A stretch of 32,000 bases of DNA. Source: an uncultured archaeon. GTDB lineage: Archaea; Iainarchaeota; Iainarchaeia; Iainarchaeales; JAAZKV01. Where the stretch lies: contig CAZKBG010000001.1 of NCBI GenBank assembly GCA_964551375.1, forward strand, positions 180,001 through 212,000, in the 5' to 3' direction. The position numbers and the translations under genes were made by a program. The notes below the pieces were generated by a model that was not told the DNA's origin, did no database searches, and saw only the letters and a list, made by a program, of their open reading frames with translations. Shown in pieces: positions 5,911 through 14,158 of the stretch (position 1 is the stretch's first letter; every line of letters starts with the position of its first letter).

Positions 5911-7800
5911 TTATTTTGTTTTTTCTTTGACAAGCTCTTTTAGAAGCTTTTTGAGGCTTATTGTCGCGGCATTAATTACTCTGTCAGCTCCGCCGTAATA
6001 GATTGTCAATTCATCATCTCTTAGCGTGCTTCCGCAAGGGAAAACAACATTATGAACAATTCCGTTTAACTCGTCTTGCGTTTCAGGCTCAAGAATGTAA
6101 TAACTCAATCTTGAAATAACTTTAGTCGGGTCGTTTAAGTCAAGAAGAGCCGCTCCCACTCTATAGACAAAATCATGGCTTGAAATTCCGTGATAAATTA
6201 AAAGCCATCCCTTATCGGTTTTAATAGGAGGGCATGAAGCGCCTATTTTCTTATCATCCCATGCGTTTTCTCGCGGAAGCATTAAAACATTTAAGTCAAG
6301 CTTTTTGTTTTTGAACAAAAGATCCTTTTCTTTTGAAATGCAAATCGAGTTATTCACGCGGTGAATAATATAATAATGCCCGTTAATGTGCTCTGGAAAA
6401 ATGCATGCATCCTTATCATCAACGCCTTCTGGAGAAATTACCACAGGATAAGTCCACTTCCAATACTTATTCACAAAATCTTTTGCCCGAATTGAAGTAA
6501 TTGCAACTCTTGGAAGCTTTCCATCATAAGCTGTGTAAAGCATGTAAATTGTTCTTGTGCTTCCAATTTGAACAAGCCTTGGGTCTTCGCAGCCCATTTC
6601 CTCAAATTTAGCGCGCGGAACATAAACAGGTTCTTTTAATTTTTCTACGGTAAAATCATCCCTAACCTGCGCATATCCAAGCACTGATTTATCAGTATCA
6701 GAAAGCGCCCTGTAAATTAAATGCGTTTTTCCGTCAATTAATAATGAAGCAGGGTTAAAGGTAGCTTTTTTTTCCCATGGATTATTTGGATTTGGCGTAA
6801 TAAGAGGGTTTTGTTTTATCCGCTTAAACTGCGCAAATCCTGGGCGAAGAATTGCGTCAAGAAGGTCATTGAGCTTGCATGTCGCAAGGCAGGAAGTGGT
6901 GTCTGCTGCGCCGTAGTAAACATAAAGTTTATCGCCCTTAACCATTGCCCCCGAAGGAAAAACAATATTTGGCACTTGCCCATAAAGCTCATACTCTTTT
7001 TTTGGAACCAAGAGAGGAAATTTAGTATATCCAAGAACTTTTTGCGGGTCATCTAAATCAAGCAATGCGGCTTCAACCCTAAATTCTTTTGAGTTGGAAA
7101 AATATCCTTTAATATAAGAATAAAAAATAAGCCATCCTTTGTCAGTTCTAATCGGCTGGGAGCCAAGCTCCACCTGATCATCAGGGCTTCTTTGAAGGGG
7201 AAGAACAAAATCATTAACAGAGAAAAAATAATTGTTCCAAAAAGTATCCGACCAAATCTGGCTCTCTTTGTCAAAATAAGCAATGCAGATTTTTGCAGGA
7301 GGGGCATCAGTGTTTATTGTAACAAGCGCCGCCATTTTTCCGTTAACTTTATCAGAAAAAAGCGCCATTGCTTTTGAATTAAAAGTAGTCACTGGGTGTT
7401 TTTCAAATTTCTTAAAATCTTGCGTTACCGCAACCCCCACTTTTATGCCCTGCGCTGAAAAAGGATATGTTGAAAGCGCTGTGTAAAAAATATAGTATTT
7501 ATCATTAAATTTTGTAATCCTTGGATCTTCACAGCCGTATTTCTCCCAGTCAAATTCAGGAGCAATTATTTGGCGGTGGGTTGCAAAATGAACTCCATCA
7601 ATGCTTTCGCTTAATCCAATGGTTGAAACAGTGGAAGGATAATTTTGAAGAATTCGCGAGCGCCCAATTGCTCTGTAAACCAAATTAATCCTGTCTTCAA
7701 AAACCGCAGGGCATGCGTTAAAAGTGGCTTCGCTTTCCCACTCAACATCAGGGTCAGGCATTATTAACGGATTACGCGGGGAACGCTCAAGCATTATCAT
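5911..7800 (-). CDS. Tandem two-domain GH130 family protein (beta-mannoside phosphorylase-like, PH1107-related)
   Basis: Two complete GH130-like modules are present. The first has RNPLIMPDPDVEWESEATFN...GCEDPRITK...YYGAAD. The second has QNPLITPNPNNPWEKKATFN...GCEDPRLV...YYGGAD. The ORF track starts at GTG 7809. I prefer ATG 7800 because a perfect AAGGTGAT Shine-Dalgarno lies 5 nt upstream, inside the end of the preceding gene. Confidence 0.8.
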   Translation of the reverse strand: MIMLERSPRNPLIMPDPDVEWESEATFNACPAVFEDRINLVYRAIGRSRILQNYPSTVSTIGLSESIDGVHFATHRQIIAPEFDWEKYGCEDPRITKFNDKYYIFYTALSTYPFSAQGIKVGVAVTQDFKKFEKHPVTTFNSKAMALFSDKVNGKMAALVTINTDAPPAKICIAYFDKESQIWSDTFWNNYFFSVNDFVLPLQRSPDDQVELGSQPIRTDKGWLIFYSYIKGYFSNSKEFRVEAALLDLDDPQKVLGYTKFPLLVPKKEYELYGQVPNIVFPSGAMVKGDKLYVYYGAADTTSCLATCKLNDLLDAILRPGFAQFKRIKQNPLITPNPNNPWEKKATFNPASLLIDGKTHLIYRALSDTDKSVLGYAQVRDDFTVEKLKEPVYVPRAKFEEMGCEDPRLVQIGSTRTIYMLYTAYDGKLPRVAITSIRAKDFVNKYWKWTYPVVISPEGVDDKDACIFPEHINGHYYIIHRVNNSICISKEKDLLFKNKKLDLNVLMLPRENAWDDKKIGASCPPIKTDKGWLLIYHGISSHDFVYRVGAALLDLNDPTKVISRLSYYILEPETQDELNGIVHNVVFPCGSTLRDDELTIYYGGADRVINAATISLKKLLKELVKEKTK

Positions 7801-7805
7801 AAAAA

Positions 7806-9548
7806 TCACCTTGGAACGCTCATGCGTAGAGGCTTAAGAGAAATCTCATGCCCAAGCCTTAACTGTTCAAGGAAAGTATCAATATCAGCTTTAGCAGCGC
7901 AGGTTACAGAATCTGCTCCGCCGTAATAAACAATCAAATCACTTTCTTTAATTACGGCCCCGCATGAATAAACAATTCCGGGCTTAAATCCGTTATTTTC
8001 ATACTCCCTGTCAGGAATCATAATGGGCTTCATTGATTTATGCAGAACTTTTTCAGGATTCTTGAGGTCAAGAAGCATTGCGCCGAGCAAATATTTTCCA
8101 GGATACTGCTTTCCAAGCGCGTGATATAAAACAAGCCATCCGTCTTTAGTTTTAATTGGAGGAGGACCAATTCCCCTAATTCGCGTGTCCCAGGTTTTTT
8201 TATTTTCAGCAAAAGCATACTGGCTCTTAATGCAGGTCTTGTCGTCAAAATCAAGGCTCTCGCAATATTCAATTGCGATTTCAGGATTAATGCTGTGAAG
8301 AATTGCATATTTGCCCTTTACTTTTTCAGGAAAAATTGTCCAATTTTTATGCACTTCATTTGGAGGAGAAATAATTACGGGCTTTGTCCATTTCCATTTC
8401 TTATTTAAAAAATCATCAATCTTAATTGAAGAAGCGGCAACTTTGGGGTGCCCGTCAAATGCAGTGTAAAGCATGTAAAGCCTGTCCCCTATTTTTGTAA
8501 TTCTTGGATCCTCGCATCCCGCAAGACTGTATCCGCTTCTCCACTGACTTGAAACATCCCCTGGCTGTGCGGAGCACACATGAACATAAATCGGCTCCTT
8601 AAGCCTCTCAACAAGGTTTAGTCCATCCTCGCTTGAAGCGTACCCGAAAACGGAAACCATTTCTTTTCCTGTGGCGCGGTAAACAAAATGAATTTTACCG
8701 TCATGCTCAACCGCAGCGGCATTAAAAGTATATTCTGATTCCCACGGATTTTCAGCCCTTGGGGAAATAATAGGATTCTCCCTGTGCTTTTCAAGAACAG
8801 GAAAAGTCGGGCGGTGAGTGAACTTGCATCCTGAAAGCATAACTCCTTTTTTCGCATTCCAATACATGTTTAATTTATTGTTGAAATAAATCATTCCAAT
8901 AGGAGAAAGAACGCTTTTTTTTGCTTCAGGCTCCCACACAGGTACATCAGCGCGCCAAAGCATCCTTTCCGGATTATTAATGTCAAACAAAATCGCCCCC
9001 ACTGTGTACGCGCTTGCTTTTTTTGAATAATAAAATAAAACTATCCCGTCGCCTGTTACGCAGGCAGTTCCAACAATCAAATCCCCTGTGTCAAAATACT
9101 TTTTCCTTGGCTCAATTACTGTGTCAAGAGTTTTCCACTTTTTCAAATCCTTTGAAACAGCAATATTTATTTTCTTGTCCCCAAAATAAGAGATGTATTG
9201 TTTTTTTGATTCATCAAAAAGAATCACTGAAGTTTCTTTTAACTCAAATACACTCGCGCTCTCCCACTTAAGAAGGCTGGGAGTTTTAATAAAAAAAGAA
9301 TCAATTTTTCCTGCAATGTTTTTTGCCTTAAACGTGATTAAATAATCTTTTTTTATTTGAGATATTCTCAAATCTTTTGAATCAAGAGCAAGCTCTTTGA
9401 CTTTTTTTATATCAATTCTAAGCGGTTTTAAGCTCAAATCATCAGGCATATATCCTGATGCCGCAATTAATTCTGACTGAGATTTATAAATAAAATAATT
9501 GCGCGTTTCTGACGCGAAGAACCCTTTACCCTCAATAGACGAATTCAT
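7806..9548 (-). CDS. GH130 family protein: degenerate N-terminal GH130-like module plus intact C-terminal module
   Basis: The C-terminal half (ENPIISPRAENPWESEYTFN...GCEDPRITK...VYYGGAD) is a full GH130 module. It is clearly paralogous to the C-terminal module of the neighbouring gene (FLNKKWKWTKPVIISP versus FVNKYWKWTYPVVISP). The N-terminal roughly 250 aa keep propeller-like segments (GAILFDINNPERMLWRADVPVWEPE) but have no CEDPR motif. Confidence 0.75.
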   Translation of the reverse strand: MNSSIEGKGFFASETRNYFIYKSQSELIAASGYMPDDLSLKPLRIDIKKVKELALDSKDLRISQIKKDYLITFKAKNIAGKIDSFFIKTPSLLKWESASVFELKETSVILFDESKKQYISYFGDKKINIAVSKDLKKWKTLDTVIEPRKKYFDTGDLIVGTACVTGDGIVLFYYSKKASAYTVGAILFDINNPERMLWRADVPVWEPEAKKSVLSPIGMIYFNNKLNMYWNAKKGVMLSGCKFTHRPTFPVLEKHRENPIISPRAENPWESEYTFNAAAVEHDGKIHFVYRATGKEMVSVFGYASSEDGLNLVERLKEPIYVHVCSAQPGDVSSQWRSGYSLAGCEDPRITKIGDRLYMLYTAFDGHPKVAASSIKIDDFLNKKWKWTKPVIISPPNEVHKNWTIFPEKVKGKYAILHSINPEIAIEYCESLDFDDKTCIKSQYAFAENKKTWDTRIRGIGPPPIKTKDGWLVLYHALGKQYPGKYLLGAMLLDLKNPEKVLHKSMKPIMIPDREYENNGFKPGIVYSCGAVIKESDLIVYYGGADSVTCAAKADIDTFLEQLRLGHEISLKPLRMSVPR

Positions 9549-9695
9549 CTTACCAGACCGAAAAATTGAAAAATTACTAAAAGGATTAGTATTTACGGTT
9601 ATTTAAGCATTTTGTATTCAAATCAAAGTTCAAAAAATCCTTTATTTTAAAGAAAGCATTGTTTAAAAACGTGGAATGCATTAATTGTGCAGGTT

Positions 9696-11030
9696 ATGGA
9701 AAATAGCACAAAACTCCCAAGCGTGTTTAGGGAAAGCGATATCCGCGGAATTGTCGGCAGGCAAATTACTCCTGAATTTGCAAGAAAAATAGGAAATGCC
9801 GTTGCAAAAACTTTCAAATCAAACTATTATGTCCTTGGAAGGGATAAGCGCTCAACAAGCAGGGCTCTTTCAAGAGCTATTAGAAAAGGCCTTCTTGAGT
9901 CAGGCGCTAATGTTTATGACCTTGGAGAAACAATTTCTCCCCTTGCTTATTTTGCGGCAAGGCACTACAACTGCCCCGGAGTATTCATTACCGCTTCGCA
10001 CAATCCAAAAGAGTATAACGGATTCAAAATTATTGGAAGCGACGGGTTAACAAAAGGAATTAGAAACGGGCTTGACAAAGTGAAGAAAGAGTTTGATTTA
10101 AACCAGCCGTTAAAGAAAACAAAAGGGAAAATTATACGCCCAAATATATTCCATGATTACAAACTTAACGTGCTTCACTTTGATAGAGGAATAACTCCAG
10201 CAAAAATTGTTCTAAATAACGGAGGAAACACGTCAGGAAAATTGCTGAAAAAAATTCTTGAAGGAAAAAGAGTTAAAATTATTGAAATTAACCCAAAAAG
10301 AGGGTATATTTCAAACCCGCTTATTGATAAGGGAAAGGAAGTGAGCAGAAAAATACTTGCAAAGAAAGCGGATTTTGGAGTCGCTTTTGACTTTGACGGC
10401 GACAGAATATTCTTTTTTGACGAGAAAGGAAACAAGCTGGATAACTCATCAATTGCCGCGCTGATTGCAAACTTTTTGCTTGGTGAAAAGAAAAGCGGAA
10501 CGATTCTTTATGACGTTCGAAGCGACTGGATAATTAAGGACACTGTCAAAACATGCGGAGGAAAATCACTGATGGTTGAAGTAGGGCACACAAATGTAAA
10601 AGAAAAAATGAAAAAAAATGACGCTATTTACTGCGGCGAAATATCAGGGCACAATTACTTTAGAGAAAGCGGCTACACCGAATCTTCATTAATGCCCATT
10701 ATAATAATTTTAAGCATTATATCAACTGAAAAGAAAACCTTGTCTGAATTAATAAAACCATTTAGAAAAAATCATCTTCTTAATGAAACAAATTACACAG
10801 TGGATGACATTAATCAGACTATTAATGATGTTTCAAAACTAATCAAAGGCGGGAAAAGGAGCACGCTTGACGGATTAAGAGTGGATTTTAATGATTGGTG
10901 GTTCAGCATCAGAGGCTCAAAGAACGAGCCGCTGATTAGGCTTAATATGGGCGCAAAAAATAAAGAAGTTTTGGAAAAAAAGCTGGCGCTTATTGAATCA
11001 GCTGTAAAAAAACACTATTTGCGCCCGTAA
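9696..11030 (+). CDS. Phosphomannomutase/phosphoglucomutase (alpha-D-phosphohexomutase family)
   Basis: TASHNPKEYNGFK is the catalytic phosphoserine loop. FDFDGDRIFF is the Mg-binding D-x-D-G-D-R motif. GEISGHNYF is the sugar-binding GE-x-SGH motif. The ORF track starts at GTG 9687; ATG 9696 (MENSTK...) is preferred. Confidence 0.85.
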   Translation: MENSTKLPSVFRESDIRGIVGRQITPEFARKIGNAVAKTFKSNYYVLGRDKRSTSRALSRAIRKGLLESGANVYDLGETISPLAYFAARHYNCPGVFITASHNPKEYNGFKIIGSDGLTKGIRNGLDKVKKEFDLNQPLKKTKGKIIRPNIFHDYKLNVLHFDRGITPAKIVLNNGGNTSGKLLKKILEGKRVKIIEINPKRGYISNPLIDKGKEVSRKILAKKADFGVAFDFDGDRIFFFDEKGNKLDNSSIAALIANFLLGEKKSGTILYDVRSDWIIKDTVKTCGGKSLMVEVGHTNVKEKMKKNDAIYCGEISGHNYFRESGYTESSLMPIIIILSIISTEKKTLSELIKPFRKNHLLNETNYTVDDINQTINDVSKLIKGGKRSTLDGLRVDFNDWWFSIRGSKNEPLIRLNMGAKNKEVLEKKLALIESAVKKHYLRP

Positions 11031-11356
11031 TCATCAGAATATCTTACTTCATCATGCTCGTCAAATTTTCCAAAAGATATTTCCAAGAATAAAACTTTTT
11101 TCTTCTTTGCTCCAAGTCTGTGCTTTACTCCTTTTTTTATAAAAATGCTTTCACCGCTCTTTGCAAGCCACTTTTTTCCCCCAATTTCTGCAACCGCAGG
11201 GCCTTCAATTATTTTCCAAAACTCATCCCTCTTTTTGTGGCTTTGAAGACTAAGCTTTTGATTAGGATTGAGCGTAAGCGTTTTTACTGTGCACTGTTTA
11301 TTCAAACAGTATCTCTCAAAACGCCCCCATGGGCGGATAACTTTCTTAATTTCCAT
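11015..11356 (-). CDS. Cupin-type (type II) mannose-6-phosphate isomerase domain protein
   Basis: VIRPWGRFERY...LTLNPNQKLSLQSHKKRDEFWKIIEG...IFIKKGVKHRL resembles the stand-alone C-terminal PMI cupin of type II PMI/GMP enzymes. The ORF-track start at 11431 would overlap the divergent prs start codon, so I prefer the internal ATG at 11356 (MEIKKVIRPWG). The 3' end overlaps the PMM 3' end by 16 nt. Confidence 0.7.
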   Translation of the reverse strand: MEIKKVIRPWGRFERYCLNKQCTVKTLTLNPNQKLSLQSHKKRDEFWKIIEGPAVAEIGGKKWLAKSGESIFIKKGVKHRLGAKKKKVLFLEISFGKFDEHDEVRYSDDYGRK

Positions 11357-11429
11357 GTGGTAAATAGGGAGTTTTGGAATAAAAAACTTCTCTAAAAAGA
11401 TATTTATACAAGTTTCTCGTTGTTTTAGC

Positions 11430-12305
11430 ATGGATGCGCTCCTGATTGAGATAAATCACCACATTGGAAAGGAAGTTGCGCGCATTAGCGGGATTGAATA
11501 CCAGCAAATGGTTCTTGAGCCGTTTCCTGACAACGAATCATATATACGTTTCCCGTTTCCAGTAAAAGGAAGAAAAATATTTTTGCTTGCTGACATGGCA
11601 AAAAAGCCAAATGAAATGCTTTCAATACTTTTACTTGCAGCAAAAACACTGCGAAAATTAAAAGCAAAGAGAATTTACCTAATTGCGCCTTACATGGTTT
11701 ACTTAAGACAGGACCATGCATTCCATCCTGGAGAAGCGGTGTCAGGATTTATTGTATCAGATTTTGTAAGCAGCTTATTTGACGGAATAATAACAATTGA
11801 CCCTCATCTTCACAGAGTAGAATCAATGAGGGGATTTTTCAGATGCAAAACACAAAAGCTTACCGCGACAAAAAAGCTTTCTGAATACTTTTCAAAAAGA
11901 GATGCAGTGCTTGTGGGACCAGACGCTGAAAGCAAGCAGTGGATAAAAGCAATTGCAGAAAATTGCGGTAAAGAATTTGTTGTAGCAAGCAAAACAAGGC
12001 ACTCAAGCAGGCATGTTGAAGTGGAAATTAAGCGCGGAAATGTAATTCTTGAAGGAAAAACCGCAATAATAGTTGACGATATTATCAGCACAGGGCATAC
12101 TATACTTGAAGCTGCAAAAGCTTTGAAGAAAGAAAAAGTAAAAGGAATTGAATGCTATGCTGTGCACGGATTATTTATGGAAGGCGCTCTTGAGAAACTT
12201 AAAAAAAGCAGAATAAAAGTCGGCGCAACTAATACTCTCAAAAATCCTGTTGAAGTAATTGATATTGCTCCTGAAATTGCTGAAGGTGTTAAAGCGTGGC
12301 TGTAA
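11430..12305 (+). CDS. prs: Ribose-phosphate pyrophosphokinase (PRPP synthetase), archaeal type
   Basis: Motifs FPDNESYIRF, APYMVYLRQD, ITIDPHLH and the PRPP-binding loop IIVDDIISTGHTI are present. Overall order matches the archaeal Prs I remember from Methanocaldococcus. Confidence 0.85.
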   Translation: MDALLIEINHHIGKEVARISGIEYQQMVLEPFPDNESYIRFPFPVKGRKIFLLADMAKKPNEMLSILLLAAKTLRKLKAKRIYLIAPYMVYLRQDHAFHPGEAVSGFIVSDFVSSLFDGIITIDPHLHRVESMRGFFRCKTQKLTATKKLSEYFSKRDAVLVGPDAESKQWIKAIAENCGKEFVVASKTRHSSRHVEVEIKRGNVILEGKTAIIVDDIISTGHTILEAAKALKKEKVKGIECYAVHGLFMEGALEKLKKSRIKVGATNTLKNPVEVIDIAPEIAEGVKAWL

Positions 12306-13564
12306 ATCAAACTGAAAAAAAGAATGCAGCGCTAAAAGCATTAAGATTAATTCCCCAAAAAGGACTTGTGGGGTTAGGCTCAGGAACCACAGTGGATACT
12401 CTTGCAGGGCTGATAAATAAGGCAAACAAATCCGAATTCATTTGCATATCAAAGAATGCTAAAAAAATACTTCAAAAAAGAGGGTTGAAATTAATCGAAA
12501 AGGAAAATCCTGTTATTGCAATTGACGGGGCGGACAGCTTTGTAAAACAAAATGGAAGGTTAATTGCCATTAAAGGCGCGGGCGCATTTGATTTTACTAA
12601 TGAGAAAAAACTTGATTACTCTGCAAAAAAATTTGTTATAATTGCTGGAAAGAGTAAATTAGAAAATAAGGACCACACAGTATTTGTTGAAGTAACAAAA
12701 AAAGCGCTTAATACTGTCATTAAGCAGCTGAAAATTTCAGGGCTTTTGGTTAAAAAGGTTCCAAAATCAAACCCCCTATTAAAAGGAAAGAAAAATGTAT
12801 TTGTTCAAATTACTCCCAAAGCAGGAACAAATTTTTCAGAACTTGAACACATGCTTGATAACACCGCTGGCGTTATTGGAAATGGAATATTCTCAAAGAA
12901 AAGATTTGATTTAATAATTGGAAAAGAAGAGCCTTTTGTTGAGACAAGGCTTCAGGTTGCCCTTGATTTTGATGAAGAGTTCCCCGCGGTTCAAACAGCA
13001 AAACAGGTTAAGGATTATGTTGATATAATTGAAATAGGAACTCCGCTTGTAAAAGCGCTGAATGAAAAACATATTATAAAAAAACTTTCAAAATACAAGA
13101 AAAAATTATTTGTGGATCTAAAAACAATGGATGCGGGTTATTTTGAATCAAGCCCTGCTATAAAGCATGGGGGAGATTATGTTTCAGTTCTTGGAGTGGC
13201 ATCAGACGAAACAGTGAAAGGAGTGCTGAAAAACGGCGCCGATAGGGTTGTAGTGGATTTAATTGGATGCAAAGATGTTGCGCTTAGAATAAATCAGCTG
13301 AAAAAATTAGGCGCGGTTAATTTTGAAGTTCATGCGGCAATTGATGACCAGGCAAAAGGCAAAACACCGCTTGAAGAAGTTAGAAAAGCATCTCAAATCA
13401 AAGGAATTAATATTTGGGCAGCAGGCGGGATAGGATTATCTTCGCTTGATGCAGTAATGGAATACAGGCCAGCAGTAGTAGTTGTCGGAGGGGCAATAAC
13501 TCACTCAAAAGACAGAAAACAAGCTGCAAAAGATATAAAAGAAAGAATAGAAGAATTAAGTTGA
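12296..13564 (+). CDS. Fusion protein: ribose-5-phosphate isomerase A (N-terminal) plus 3-hexulose-6-phosphate synthase (C-terminal)
   Basis: GTG start overlaps the prs stop by 10 nt. aa 1-215 carry RpiA motifs: VGLGSGTT, IAIDGADSF, IKGAGAF..NEK, FVIIAGKSKL and AGVIGNGIF. aa 216-422 carry HPS / OMP-decarboxylase-family motifs: LQVALDF, DIIEIGTPLVK, DLKTMDAG, VHAAIDDQ, AAGGI and VVVGGAIT. Confidence 0.8.
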   Translation: MAVNQTEKKNAALKALRLIPQKGLVGLGSGTTVDTLAGLINKANKSEFICISKNAKKILQKRGLKLIEKENPVIAIDGADSFVKQNGRLIAIKGAGAFDFTNEKKLDYSAKKFVIIAGKSKLENKDHTVFVEVTKKALNTVIKQLKISGLLVKKVPKSNPLLKGKKNVFVQITPKAGTNFSELEHMLDNTAGVIGNGIFSKKRFDLIIGKEEPFVETRLQVALDFDEEFPAVQTAKQVKDYVDIIEIGTPLVKALNEKHIIKKLSKYKKKLFVDLKTMDAGYFESSPAIKHGGDYVSVLGVASDETVKGVLKNGADRVVVDLIGCKDVALRINQLKKLGAVNFEVHAAIDDQAKGKTPLEEVRKASQIKGINIWAAGGIGLSSLDAVMEYRPAVVVVGGAITHSKDRKQAAKDIKERIEELS

Positions 13565-13612
13565 AGTTAACATAACTTTGGATATTAAAATTAAGTTTGA
13601 AAGGTTGATTTT

Positions 13613-14158
13613 ATGAAATATATTTGGTATGAAGAAAAAATACTTTCAGAAATAGAATCCGTTCTAAAAAGCAATCCTGAAAAGAGCGAAAAGAATCTTG
13701 TGAAGGAAATAATTGACTCTAATTCAGTATTTGTTAGCGGTGCAGGGCGCTCTGGATTAATCGCAAAAACATTCGCAATGAGATTAATTCAGCTTGGCAT
13801 AACATGCCATGTCGTAGGCGAAACCACTACCCCAGCATTTACAAAAAAAGATTTACTAATATCCCTATCAGGCTCAGGAGAAACAAAAACAATTATAGAT
13901 ATTGCTTTTGAGGCAAAAGATAAAGGCGCAAGAACCGTTGCAATTACTTCAGAAGAAAAAGGAACCCTTGCAAAAATAAGCAGTTTAACGGTTGTGTTAA
14001 AATCAAAAACAAAAAAAGGCGGTACAAGCATCCAGCCCCTTGGAAGTTTATTTGAGCAGAGCGCATTTATCTTCTTTGAAGCGGCAGTGCTTGGAATAAT
14101 GAAAAAGAAAGGAATTACTGAAAAAGTAATGAAACAAAATCACTCGAACCTTGAATAG
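13613..14158 (+). CDS. phi: 6-phospho-3-hexuloisomerase (SIS domain)
   Basis: 181 aa. VFVSGAGRSGLIAKTFAMRL and LLISLSGSGETKT are SIS-domain motifs in a PHI-sized protein. It lies directly downstream of the HPS-containing gene. Confidence 0.8.
   Translation: MKYIWYEEKILSEIESVLKSNPEKSEKNLVKEIIDSNSVFVSGAGRSGLIAKTFAMRLIQLGITCHVVGETTTPAFTKKDLLISLSGSGETKTIIDIAFEAKDKGARTVAITSEEKGTLAKISSLTVVLKSKTKKGGTSIQPLGSLFEQSAFIFFEAAVLGIMKKKGITEKVMKQNHSNLE

Follow-up and report, generated by a model that had tools for sequence, protein, structure and literature searches.

Two described routes come close to the system reported here. In bacteria, the sequence from glycoside hydrolase family 130 (GH130) enzymes through phosphomannomutase (PMM) and mannose-6-phosphate isomerase (PMI) to fructose-6-phosphate is an accepted catabolic route (PMC4264767), and in the archaeon Thermococcus the ribulose monophosphate (RuMP) pathway, run in reverse, has been established as a supply of pentoses (PMC12628685, citing Orita 2006). 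The locus studied here lies in a 32,000-nucleotide stretch of DNA from an uncultured archaeon (G000:C1:180001-212000; hereafter, the window), taken from an assembly, G000, that comprises 1.09 Mb in 10 contigs and is 93% complete. An 8.2-kb block in the window holds seven adjacent genes, which encode two GH130 proteins (GH130A and GH130B), a PMM-type mutase, a small cupin resembling PMI, a ribose-phosphate diphosphokinase (Prs), a fusion of ribose-5-phosphate isomerase and hexulose-6-phosphate synthase (RpiA-HPS) and 6-phospho-3-hexuloisomerase (PHI). We consider it likely that this block represents one functional module, which would convert a cytoplasmic beta-mannoside, most likely beta-1,2-linked, to phosphoribosyl diphosphate (PRPP) without ATP for the first phosphorylation.

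In the proposed pathway, the C-terminal module of GH130A (A_C) would use phosphate to release alpha-mannose-1-phosphate from the mannoside, the mutase, which is of the PMM/phosphoglucomutase (PGM) type, would convert this product to mannose-6-phosphate, and the small cupin isomerase would yield fructose-6-phosphate. PHI would then form hexulose-6-phosphate, in the reverse direction of the RuMP pathway, the HPS half of the fusion would split this compound into ribulose-5-phosphate and formaldehyde, the RpiA half would produce ribose-5-phosphate and a divergent Prs would complete the route to PRPP. The N-terminal module of GH130A (A_N) and the well-formed module of GH130B (B) would belong to the same machine, in roles such as trimming, binding or transfer; their altered phosphate sites suggest that phosphorolysis is probably not among these roles. 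A preliminary description of the window had proposed the same interpretation from mannoside to PRPP. Comparative linkage supports it, and neither the relatives nor the rest of the genome provided evidence that refutes it, but the phosphorolytic step has to be narrowed to what is likely a single module. Gene identities, the condition of the active-site residues, the conserved linkage and the negative searches for other routes in this genome are results of the analysis, whereas the enzymatic activities, the direction of flux, the beta-1,2 specificity and the substrate source are inferred.

Linkage within the genus (22 genomes, including G000) was mapped by tblastn, and the phylum was represented by 215 genomes. 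Within the genus, the presence of GH130 and that of RpiA-HPS agree, as both were found in the same 5 of the 22 genomes (G000, G004, G017, G018 and G020), and the two are physically linked in G000, G004, G017 and G018. The arrangement of the window is also that of G017 and G004, a divergent GH130/PMM arrangement is shared by G017, G004 and G020, and GH130 is located downstream of PHI in G018. In G020, a single-module GH130 gene is divergent from the mutase gene and a second contig carries PMI-Prs-RpiA-HPS-PHI; these two short contigs seem to join via the mutase gene. The string PMI-Prs-RpiA-HPS-PHI was also found in a genome of another genus (G023) and on a metagenome contig (L060) that holds the end of a mutase gene as well.

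Further analysis of the phylum revealed a second version of the cluster. Four genomes of a sister family (f3; G078, G086, G089 and G091) carry Prs-RpiB-HPS-PHI-GH130B-GH130A-PMI-PMM on one strand, with genes that overlap or are separated by tiny gaps and with unrelated genes on either side, while a fifth genome (G095) has GH130B-GH130A-PMI-PMM on a short contig. Gene order in this family differs from that in the window and RpiB takes the place of RpiA, which suggests that the function has been kept by a non-orthologous enzyme. A scan of metagenomes with the fusion alignment retrieved mainly plain HPS loci; the informative ones were L060 and L071, the latter with the order GH130-HAD-Prs-RpiB-HPS-PHI. 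Strong HPS matches were found in about 13 of the 215 phylum genomes, 8 of which carry GH130 on the same contig, and in a ninth, G020, the HPS contig seems to adjoin the GH130 contig. In total, the same functions are linked in approximately 10 related genomes from two families. Prs immediately precedes Rpi in each version of the cluster that was observed, which points to PRPP synthesis as the likely direction of flux. With regard to PMM and PMI, for which the preliminary description had weighed a role confined to GDP-mannose synthesis, the conserved partners in the relatives are Prs, Rpi, HPS, PHI and GH130, and not GDP-mannose pyrophosphorylase or glycosyltransferases.

The position of the block varies as well. 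In G000, it lies between a DnaJ-like and an HGSNAT-like gene; in G004, these two genes are directly adjacent and the block is found elsewhere; in G017, 12 kb separate the block from the HGSNAT-like gene; and in G010, where neither GH130 nor HPS was found, a phosphoenolpyruvate carboxykinase gene adjoins HGSNAT. The block is accessory and mobile as a unit within the genus. Because the adjacency of these genes is conserved yet reshuffled in relatives, it is not due to chance, and it is difficult, unless the genes share a function, to account for a linkage that persists although the genes have been rearranged, one enzyme exchanged and the block moved. Single-module GH130 proteins from other families of the phylum (about 33% identical) were also considered and set aside as a different system, with no linked pathway genes in 20-kb windows.

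The rest of the G000 assembly was analyzed by family searches, each of which was positive in at least 2 of 14 control genomes and most of which were positive in nine or more. The preliminary description had regarded the lack of other pentose-phosphate routes as important for its interpretation, and in this 93%-complete assembly transketolase, transaldolase, 6-phosphogluconate dehydrogenase and ribulose-5-phosphate 3-epimerase were indeed not found (glucose-6-phosphate dehydrogenase was not searched for). The same searches did not detect fructose-1,6-bisphosphate (FBP) aldolase/phosphatase, a DeoC-type class I aldolase, a class II aldolase, phosphoglucose isomerase (PGI), or ADP-dependent and ROK sugar kinases. 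Two NTP-transferase matches were identified, RmlA in a dTDP-sugar cluster and one weak match, and neither was a clear mannose-1-phosphate guanylyltransferase or ManC. On this evidence, no source or sink of fructose-6-phosphate and no route to pentose phosphates and PRPP is visible in G000 outside the block.

The GH130 modules were assigned to a clade on the basis of PDB and NCBIfam scores. Their closest solved relatives are Teth514_1788/1789 (PDB 9fj8, 7fip), which belong to subfamily GH130_6 (PMC12814180) and are about 50% identical to A_C, and the closest characterised enzymes to A_C act on beta-1,2-mannosides. The best model for all four modules was NF052550, for beta-1,2-mannobiose phosphorylase (A_C, 254 bits; C-terminal module of GH130B, 227; A_N, 180; N-terminal module of GH130B, 55), and the model for the beta-1,2-mannosidase BT3780 scored lower. 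Modules were aligned from 13 archaeal genomes first and then from 80 further loci, with residue roles taken from PMC4599007, PMC12814180 and PMC10913872. The alignment contains three orthologous module types, A_N, A_C and B (tree support of 99/99 for the A_N clade and 100/99 for the B clade), which represent conserved paralogues within the lineage of beta-1,2-mannoside phosphorylases.

In A_C, the ED motif, the beta-1,2 Lys and the Tyr are retained, together with the Arg of 'HR', the His of 'YH' and a Lys/Arg at the third basic site. All of these are invariant in 79/79 orthologues, including the catalytic Asp in GCEDPR. All of the phosphate ligands, whose counterparts are Lys136/Arg153/His212/Tyr229 in the GT108 ancestor and K184/R202/R242 in Uhgb_MS, are kept, and so are both beta-1,2 determinants, ED (not YD) and the Lys of 'DKDA' (equivalent to BT3780 Lys199). 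In our reading, A_C is the predicted phosphorylase of the trio. A_N keeps ED, Lys and the distal Asp, and in every sequence it has Thr/Ser for Arg (Arg in 0/79), Ser for His and Phe for Tyr. Moreover, A_N has gained a Glu in a 'VExG' motif two residues past the third basic site (78/79) and a second Glu after the Tyr-to-Phe site (68/79 loci), and it scored 180 bits against the phosphorylase model as compared to 96 against the BT3780 model. We read A_N as not being a phosphorylase; it may act as a hydrolase or a binding partner. The B module retains all ligands except the Arg in these archaea ('HS' or 'HN' for 'HR'); the 'HS' of GH130B in G000 aligns to the 'HR' of Teth514_1788/1789, Lin0857 and TM1225, and over 72 loci the motif is HS in 45, HR in 22 and HN in 3. 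The role of the B module is uncertain. Thus, on the question of phosphorylase or hydrolase affiliation raised in the preliminary description, the modules fit the beta-1,2 phosphorylase model over the BT3780 hydrolase and the ligands of A_C are intact, but the phosphate sites of A_N and B are altered.

In another class of the phylum (G197, G209 and G210), A_N and A_C each have a gene of their own, and some organisms combine all three types in single proteins of about 1000 amino acids (aa), which argues for a joint function. Two irregular cases were observed within the genus. In G017 (L041, G017:C71, 623-4325), GH130A and GH130B are each split into two overlapping open reading frames (ORFs), which could represent assembly-error frameshifts or early pseudogenes. 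G004 carries an extra GH130 paralogue on a very long branch (L049, G004:C37, 4739-5890); it lacks 'HR', has the 'VExG' Glu as in A_N, and retains His and Tyr.

The remaining enzymes were identified with differing margins. Pfam PGM_PMM domains I and III of the mutase were above the cut-offs and domain II scored 26.8 bits against a cut-off of 29.3; the best solved relatives are the bifunctional PMM/PGM enzymes 5bmn and 1k35. Assignment of this gene as a phosphopentomutase was rejected, as PMM/PGM relatives score far higher and the gene travels with GH130 and PMI. The cupin matched PF01050, the C-terminal PMI domain, with 71 bits (cut-off 23.6), and no solved structure related to it by sequence was found. 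Gln, His, Glu and His in its 'SLQxHxxRxExW ... HR' motif are conserved in 12 orthologues; by analogy with type I PMI, these are candidate metal ligands, which is a lead only. Prs scored 205 bits against TIGR01251 (cut-off 113) and contains both domains, PF13793 and PF00156. Two kinds of Prs occur in the genus, a canonical one (PF13793 at about 1e-48) and a divergent one (about 1e-17) that is restricted to the block; the divergent block Prs is the sole Prs found in G000, other members of the genus carry the canonical kind, and G020 has both kinds. The HPS half of the fusion is full length, with 183 bits against TIGR03128, just under the cut-off of 200, and no variation in the motifs DGAD/K/E and DxKxxD/H was seen among 8 fusions. 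RpiA-HPS fusions are rare, with 9 found among 5.8 billion proteins, and a search of genome contigs with the single RpiA-HPS protein retrieved no related loci. PHI scored 200 bits against TIGR03127 (cut-off 160) and follows HPS at all related loci; the fusion is thus not of the HPS-PHI kind known from Thermococcus, as PHI is a separate gene here.

The GH130 pair is found far beyond this phylum. GH130A in its two-module form has more than 5,450 protein matches at E <= 1e-30, the best of which reach 50-54% full-length identity, and most of the source names given are those of Patescibacteria. Among 80 genome loci examined for neighbours (L169-L248, genome contigs), GH130B immediately precedes GH130A in 76, a gene for the small cupin PMI adjoins the pair in 22 and a PMM-like gene does so in 4; Prs, HPS and PHI were present in a single locus, which is archaeal. 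These counts suggest that the core unit is GH130B-GH130A, often with PMI. Only in this archaeal phylum was the pair observed together with RuMP enzymes and Prs. In many Patescibacteria loci GH130B is also of the long form (about 550-580 aa). Most of the locus records bear a Patescibacteria label, and the few with other labels include Arthrospiribacter ruber (L189) and Methanobacterium sp. (L200). Three-module fusions of about 970-1080 aa are represented by P0125-P0127, P0130 and P0161. Other neighbours recur within 8 kb in the bacterial loci, each in a minority of them: a MacB-type ABC ATPase (16 loci), a 182-aa cytidylyltransferase-like protein (11), an HlyD-like protein (9), a MacB permease (8), a HAD-IIB phosphatase (6) and GT4 glycosyltransferases (5). 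A Cof-type HAD-IIB hydrolase adjoins GH130 in the metagenome contig L071 (363-1139) and in 6 bacterial loci (e.g., L248, 7693-8448); it could be a sugar-phosphate phosphatase or a HAD-type mutase replacing PMM.

Several observations weigh against the proposed conversion of a mannoside to PRPP. The pathway would release formaldehyde, and we know of no natural source of beta-1,2-mannosides for archaea; the suggestion in the preliminary description that host mannosylated glycans are the substrate is speculation. Every GH130 module is below the NF052550 equivalog cut-off (429 against 450 bits for the whole protein), so that GH130A is to be regarded as a relative rather than a certified equivalog. 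Two of the three well-formed GH130 modules lack phosphate ligands, and therefore probably one module only is a phosphorylase. The block of the window is divided into four transcription units instead of forming one operon, the mutase could also supply glucose-1-phosphate for RmlA, and the genomes in which the genes are linked are related to one another and not fully independent. The completeness of the assembly is 93%, and family searches can miss divergent enzymes. Finally, no BPD_transp_1 permease, the usual type of oligosaccharide importer, was found in G000, and there is no importer in or near the block; matches to major facilitator superfamily transporters occur at three or four places in the genome.

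An internal store similar to the mannogen of Leishmania represents an unlikely alternative. Under this explanation, the GH130 paralogues would build and degrade a cytoplasmic beta-1,2-mannan from which the block draws pentoses and PRPP; the Arg-less B module, and perhaps A_N, would be a GDP-mannose- or mannose-1-phosphate-dependent transferase or a trimmer, and A_C would be the phosphorylase. The downstream chemistry would be identical to that of the pathway proposed above, with the origin of the substrate as the only difference. A store would fit with the cytoplasmic location of all GH130 proteins and the absence of linkage to an importer, and with the conservation of the trio over two domains of life, including its fusion in some organisms. 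GH130 beta-1,2 phosphorylases also show weak GDP-mannose transferase activity (PMC12814180). In addition, the Ser of B is located at the position of MTP4 Arg150 / MTP2 His161 in GT108, where an Arg-to-His change abolished phosphorylase activity in an engineered ancestor (PMC10913872). However, an Arg at this position is itself insufficient for phosphorylase activity in GT108, the Arg/His position alone is not diagnostic for phosphorylase versus transferase (PMC10913872), and B retains the Arg in 22 of the 72 loci. Moreover, neither a clear mannose-1-phosphate guanylyltransferase nor another hexose phosphate source that could fill the store was found in G000.

It is improbable that the genes are neighbours only because they share fructose-6-phosphate, with PMI and PMM running toward mannose-1-phosphate for glycans, the GH130 proteins acting as reverse-phosphorolytic synthases and the RuMP enzymes and Prs operating independently. 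Up to Prs, every step (GH130, mutase, isomerases, HPS and RpiA) is reversible, the mutase is of the bifunctional PMM/PGM type and G000 needs glucose-1-phosphate for RmlA, all of which would agree with such an anabolic arrangement. It would nevertheless require a route that makes fructose-6-phosphate, and none (FBP aldolase, FBP phosphatase, PGI or hexokinase) was found in G000, nor was ManC. The GH130 pair of Patescibacteria also keeps its PMI neighbour without RuMP genes, which fits a catabolic GH130-PMI unit.

Formaldehyde fixation from pentose to hexose, in which nucleoside salvage would supply ribose-5-phosphate, HPS would join the isomerised product to formaldehyde, and PHI, PMI and PMM would carry the carbon on to mannosides, is very improbable even though HPS and PHI classically fix formaldehyde and G000 has a nucleoside/AMP salvage set of RuBisCO, a DeoA-like gene and an IF-2B-family gene. 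Prs, an effectively irreversible consumer of ribose-5-phosphate, is found immediately before Rpi in all observed versions of the cluster, there is no evident formaldehyde source, and archaea that lack the pentose-phosphate pathway are known to run these enzymes in reverse (PMC12628685). Chance adjacency of unrelated housekeeping genes, which the four transcription units on both strands might suggest, is scarcely credible, as it is already contradicted by the synteny data, with linkage kept through rearrangement, Rpi replacement and different genomic sites in about 10 genomes, and by the presence-absence agreement of GH130 and HPS over the 22 genomes of the genus.

Every enzyme family in the block is already known, as is each half of the pathway. 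As far as a partial literature search can indicate, the novelty lies in the joining of these known parts in a single conserved block, in the RpiA-HPS fusion and in the way the GH130 system is built from three paralogues. The titles and abstract openings that this search returned on GH130 with the candidate phyla radiation and Patescibacteria mention no such gene cluster, and a paper on a Microgenomates genome, which matched GH130 with DPANN, notes two cytoplasmic GH130 enzymes in that genome. The RuMP enzymes HxlA/HxlB have been reported as absent from DPANN outside Altiarchaeota (PMC8407392); as compared to this report, the roughly 13 genomes with strong HPS matches belong to a DPANN phylum. 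The block would provide a subset of this phylum with a self-contained, ATP-sparing route from beta-mannoside to PRPP. DPANN archaea are usually described as host-dependent for nucleotides and sugars. Given its accessory and mobile nature, the block could be a sign that close relatives differ in lifestyle or in how far they depend on a host. It also points to a very common uncharacterised three-paralogue GH130 system in Patescibacteria and DPANN, with one clear predicted phosphorylase and one paralogue with a glutamate-replaced phosphate site. A broader possibility, which is based on analogy and which we regard as doubtful, is that GH130B and the A_N-A_C protein are a prokaryotic counterpart of the mannogen machinery that would make, trim and phosphorolyse a cytoplasmic beta-1,2-mannan in ultra-small host-dependent cells, and that would be wired here to PRPP via the reverse RuMP pathway. 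If so, the mannan would be a private carbohydrate buffer for nucleotide synthesis.

The seven genes named in the preliminary description were all confirmed at 5911-14158, with the expected domains, by the ORF list and by Pfam and NCBIfam profile searches (Table 1). They form at least four transcription units, GH130B-GH130A (reverse strand), the mutase gene (forward), the PMI gene (reverse) and prs-rpiA/hps-phi (forward), and the block is not a single operon. GH130A probably starts at the ATG at 7800, which would give a protein of 629 aa. For PMI, alignment with eleven orthologues suggests Met26, at approximately position 11356, as the start; with this start, there is no overlap with prs and a divergent spacer of 73 nt remains before prs. 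By-eye inspection of both divergent intergenic regions revealed no convincing common operator. The preliminary description had also stated that signal peptides and transporters are lacking, which agrees with a by-eye reading of the GH130 N-termini, where no signal peptide was seen, and with the absence of a transporter gene from the block.

Table 1. Features of the beta-mannoside/PRPP block, with positions in the window
Feature	Position	Strand	Basis
GH130A, 632 aa, two GH130 modules	5911-7809	-	Pfam, NCBIfam
GH130A C-terminal module A_C, predicted beta-1,2-mannoside phosphorylase	5911-6834	-	Identity to Teth514_1788/1789; NF052550, 254 bits
GH130A N-terminal module A_N, conserved paralogue without phosphate site	6835-7809	-	Residue alignment, tree
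GH130B, 580 aa, good C-terminal GH130 module and degenerate N-terminal one	7806-9548	-	Domain profiles
GH130B C-terminal module (B type), Ser at phosphate-binding Arg position	7806-8813	-	Alignment
GH130B N-terminal degenerate GH130-like module	8814-9548	-	55-57 bits against GH130 models; weak GH32N match
Divergent intergenic region between GH130B and mutase gene	9549-9686	.	Sequence reading
Alpha-D-phosphohexomutase, PMM/PGM type, predicted to convert mannose-1-phosphate to mannose-6-phosphate	9687-11030	+	Pfam PGM_PMM, solved relatives
Small cupin resembling type II mannose-6-phosphate isomerase	11015-11356 (ORF open to 11431)	-	PF01050
Divergent ribose-phosphate diphosphokinase (Prs)	11430-12305	+	TIGR01251
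RpiA-HPS fusion, 422 aa, 10-nt overlap with prs	12296-13564	+	PF06026 and PF00215, TIGR03128
6-Phospho-3-hexuloisomerase (PHI)	13613-14158	+	TIGR03127

Two other loci of G000 are of relevance for the metabolites of the block. The dTDP-sugar cluster at G000:C1:119237-122944 (L057) encodes an aminotransferase, RmlA and dTDP-glucose 4,6-dehydratase and needs glucose-1-phosphate, and no PGI or glucokinase was found in G000; the PMM/PGM mutase and the cupin of the block may also supply this cluster. At G000:C1:138596-144915 (L059, L160), a DeoA-like (Glycos_transf_3) gene lies within 3 kb of an IF-2B-family gene, and RuBisCO is encoded about 700 kb from this pair (C1:856346-857233). RuBisCO is present in all 21 other members of the genus, with or without the block; the AMP/RuBisCO salvage route is core to the genus and the block is accessory. 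A role of the PRPP mainly as fuel for the RuBisCO route was therefore left as a possible fate only, and in principle this route could draw on PRPP or ribose phosphates made by the block.

Among known systems, Teth514_1788/1789 of Thermoanaerobacter sp. X-514 (PMC4264767, PMC12814180) are the closest characterised and solved relatives of A_C. In both cases, the proteins are cytoplasmic and lack a signal peptide, GH130 paralogues are encoded side by side and the product is mannose-1-phosphate, which is a prediction for the archaeal proteins. However, the Thermoanaerobacter cluster includes an ABC importer, GH5, a mannose-1-phosphate guanylyltransferase and GT4 and has been proposed to feed GDP-mannose, whereas in the archaeal block the GH130 genes sit with PMM, PMI, Prs, Rpi, HPS and PHI, GH130A combines two modules in one protein and phosphate ligands are missing from two of the three paralogues. 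Linkage to an importer, guanylyltransferase or GT4 of the Teth514 type was not found in the window or in the related archaeal loci. The GH130_3 beta-1,2-mannosidases BT3780 and BACOVA_03624 (PMC4599007) resemble A_N in that basic phosphate ligands are missing and ED and the beta-1,2 Lys are kept, and they carry glutamates in the pocket; homology between Glu227/Glu268 of BT3780 and the glutamates of A_N could not be demonstrated. Unlike BT3780, A_N is cytoplasmic, is fused to a predicted phosphorylase and scores higher against the phosphorylase model.

The GT108 proteins MTP1-7 of Leishmania mannogen metabolism (PMC10913872, PMC8950772) have a five-bladed propeller of the same fold, use the same Lys, Arg, His and Tyr as phosphate ligands and vary among paralogues at the same Arg position; their substrate is a cytoplasmic beta-1,2-mannan. 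By comparison, GT108 is a different CAZy family and is eukaryotic, and no GDP-mannose supply was found for the archaeal system. The GH130-PMM-PMI systems of Bacteroides and Ruminococcus, as summarised in PMC4264767, follow the same logic of intracellular phosphorolysis to mannose-1-phosphate, mannose-6-phosphate and fructose-6-phosphate, with one ATP saved. The enzymes in that summary act on beta-1,4 linkages and deliver fructose-6-phosphate to glycolysis, whereas the archaeal modules are of a beta-1,2-like lineage, upper glycolysis was not found in G000 and fructose-6-phosphate would be directed to pentoses. In Thermococcus kodakarensis and Pyrococcus horikoshii (Orita 2006, cited in PMC12628685), HPS and PHI of the reverse RuMP pathway convert fructose-6-phosphate to ribulose-5-phosphate and formaldehyde and supply ribose-5-phosphate to an archaeon that lacks a pentose-phosphate pathway; the predicted supply here would match this, in a genome in which no such pathway was found. 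The fusion in those archaea is HPS-PHI, whereas the block has RpiA-HPS with a separate PHI and the sister family has separate RpiB, HPS and PHI; and, unlike in Thermococcus, the RuMP enzymes are physically joined here to a glycan phosphorylase system and to Prs.

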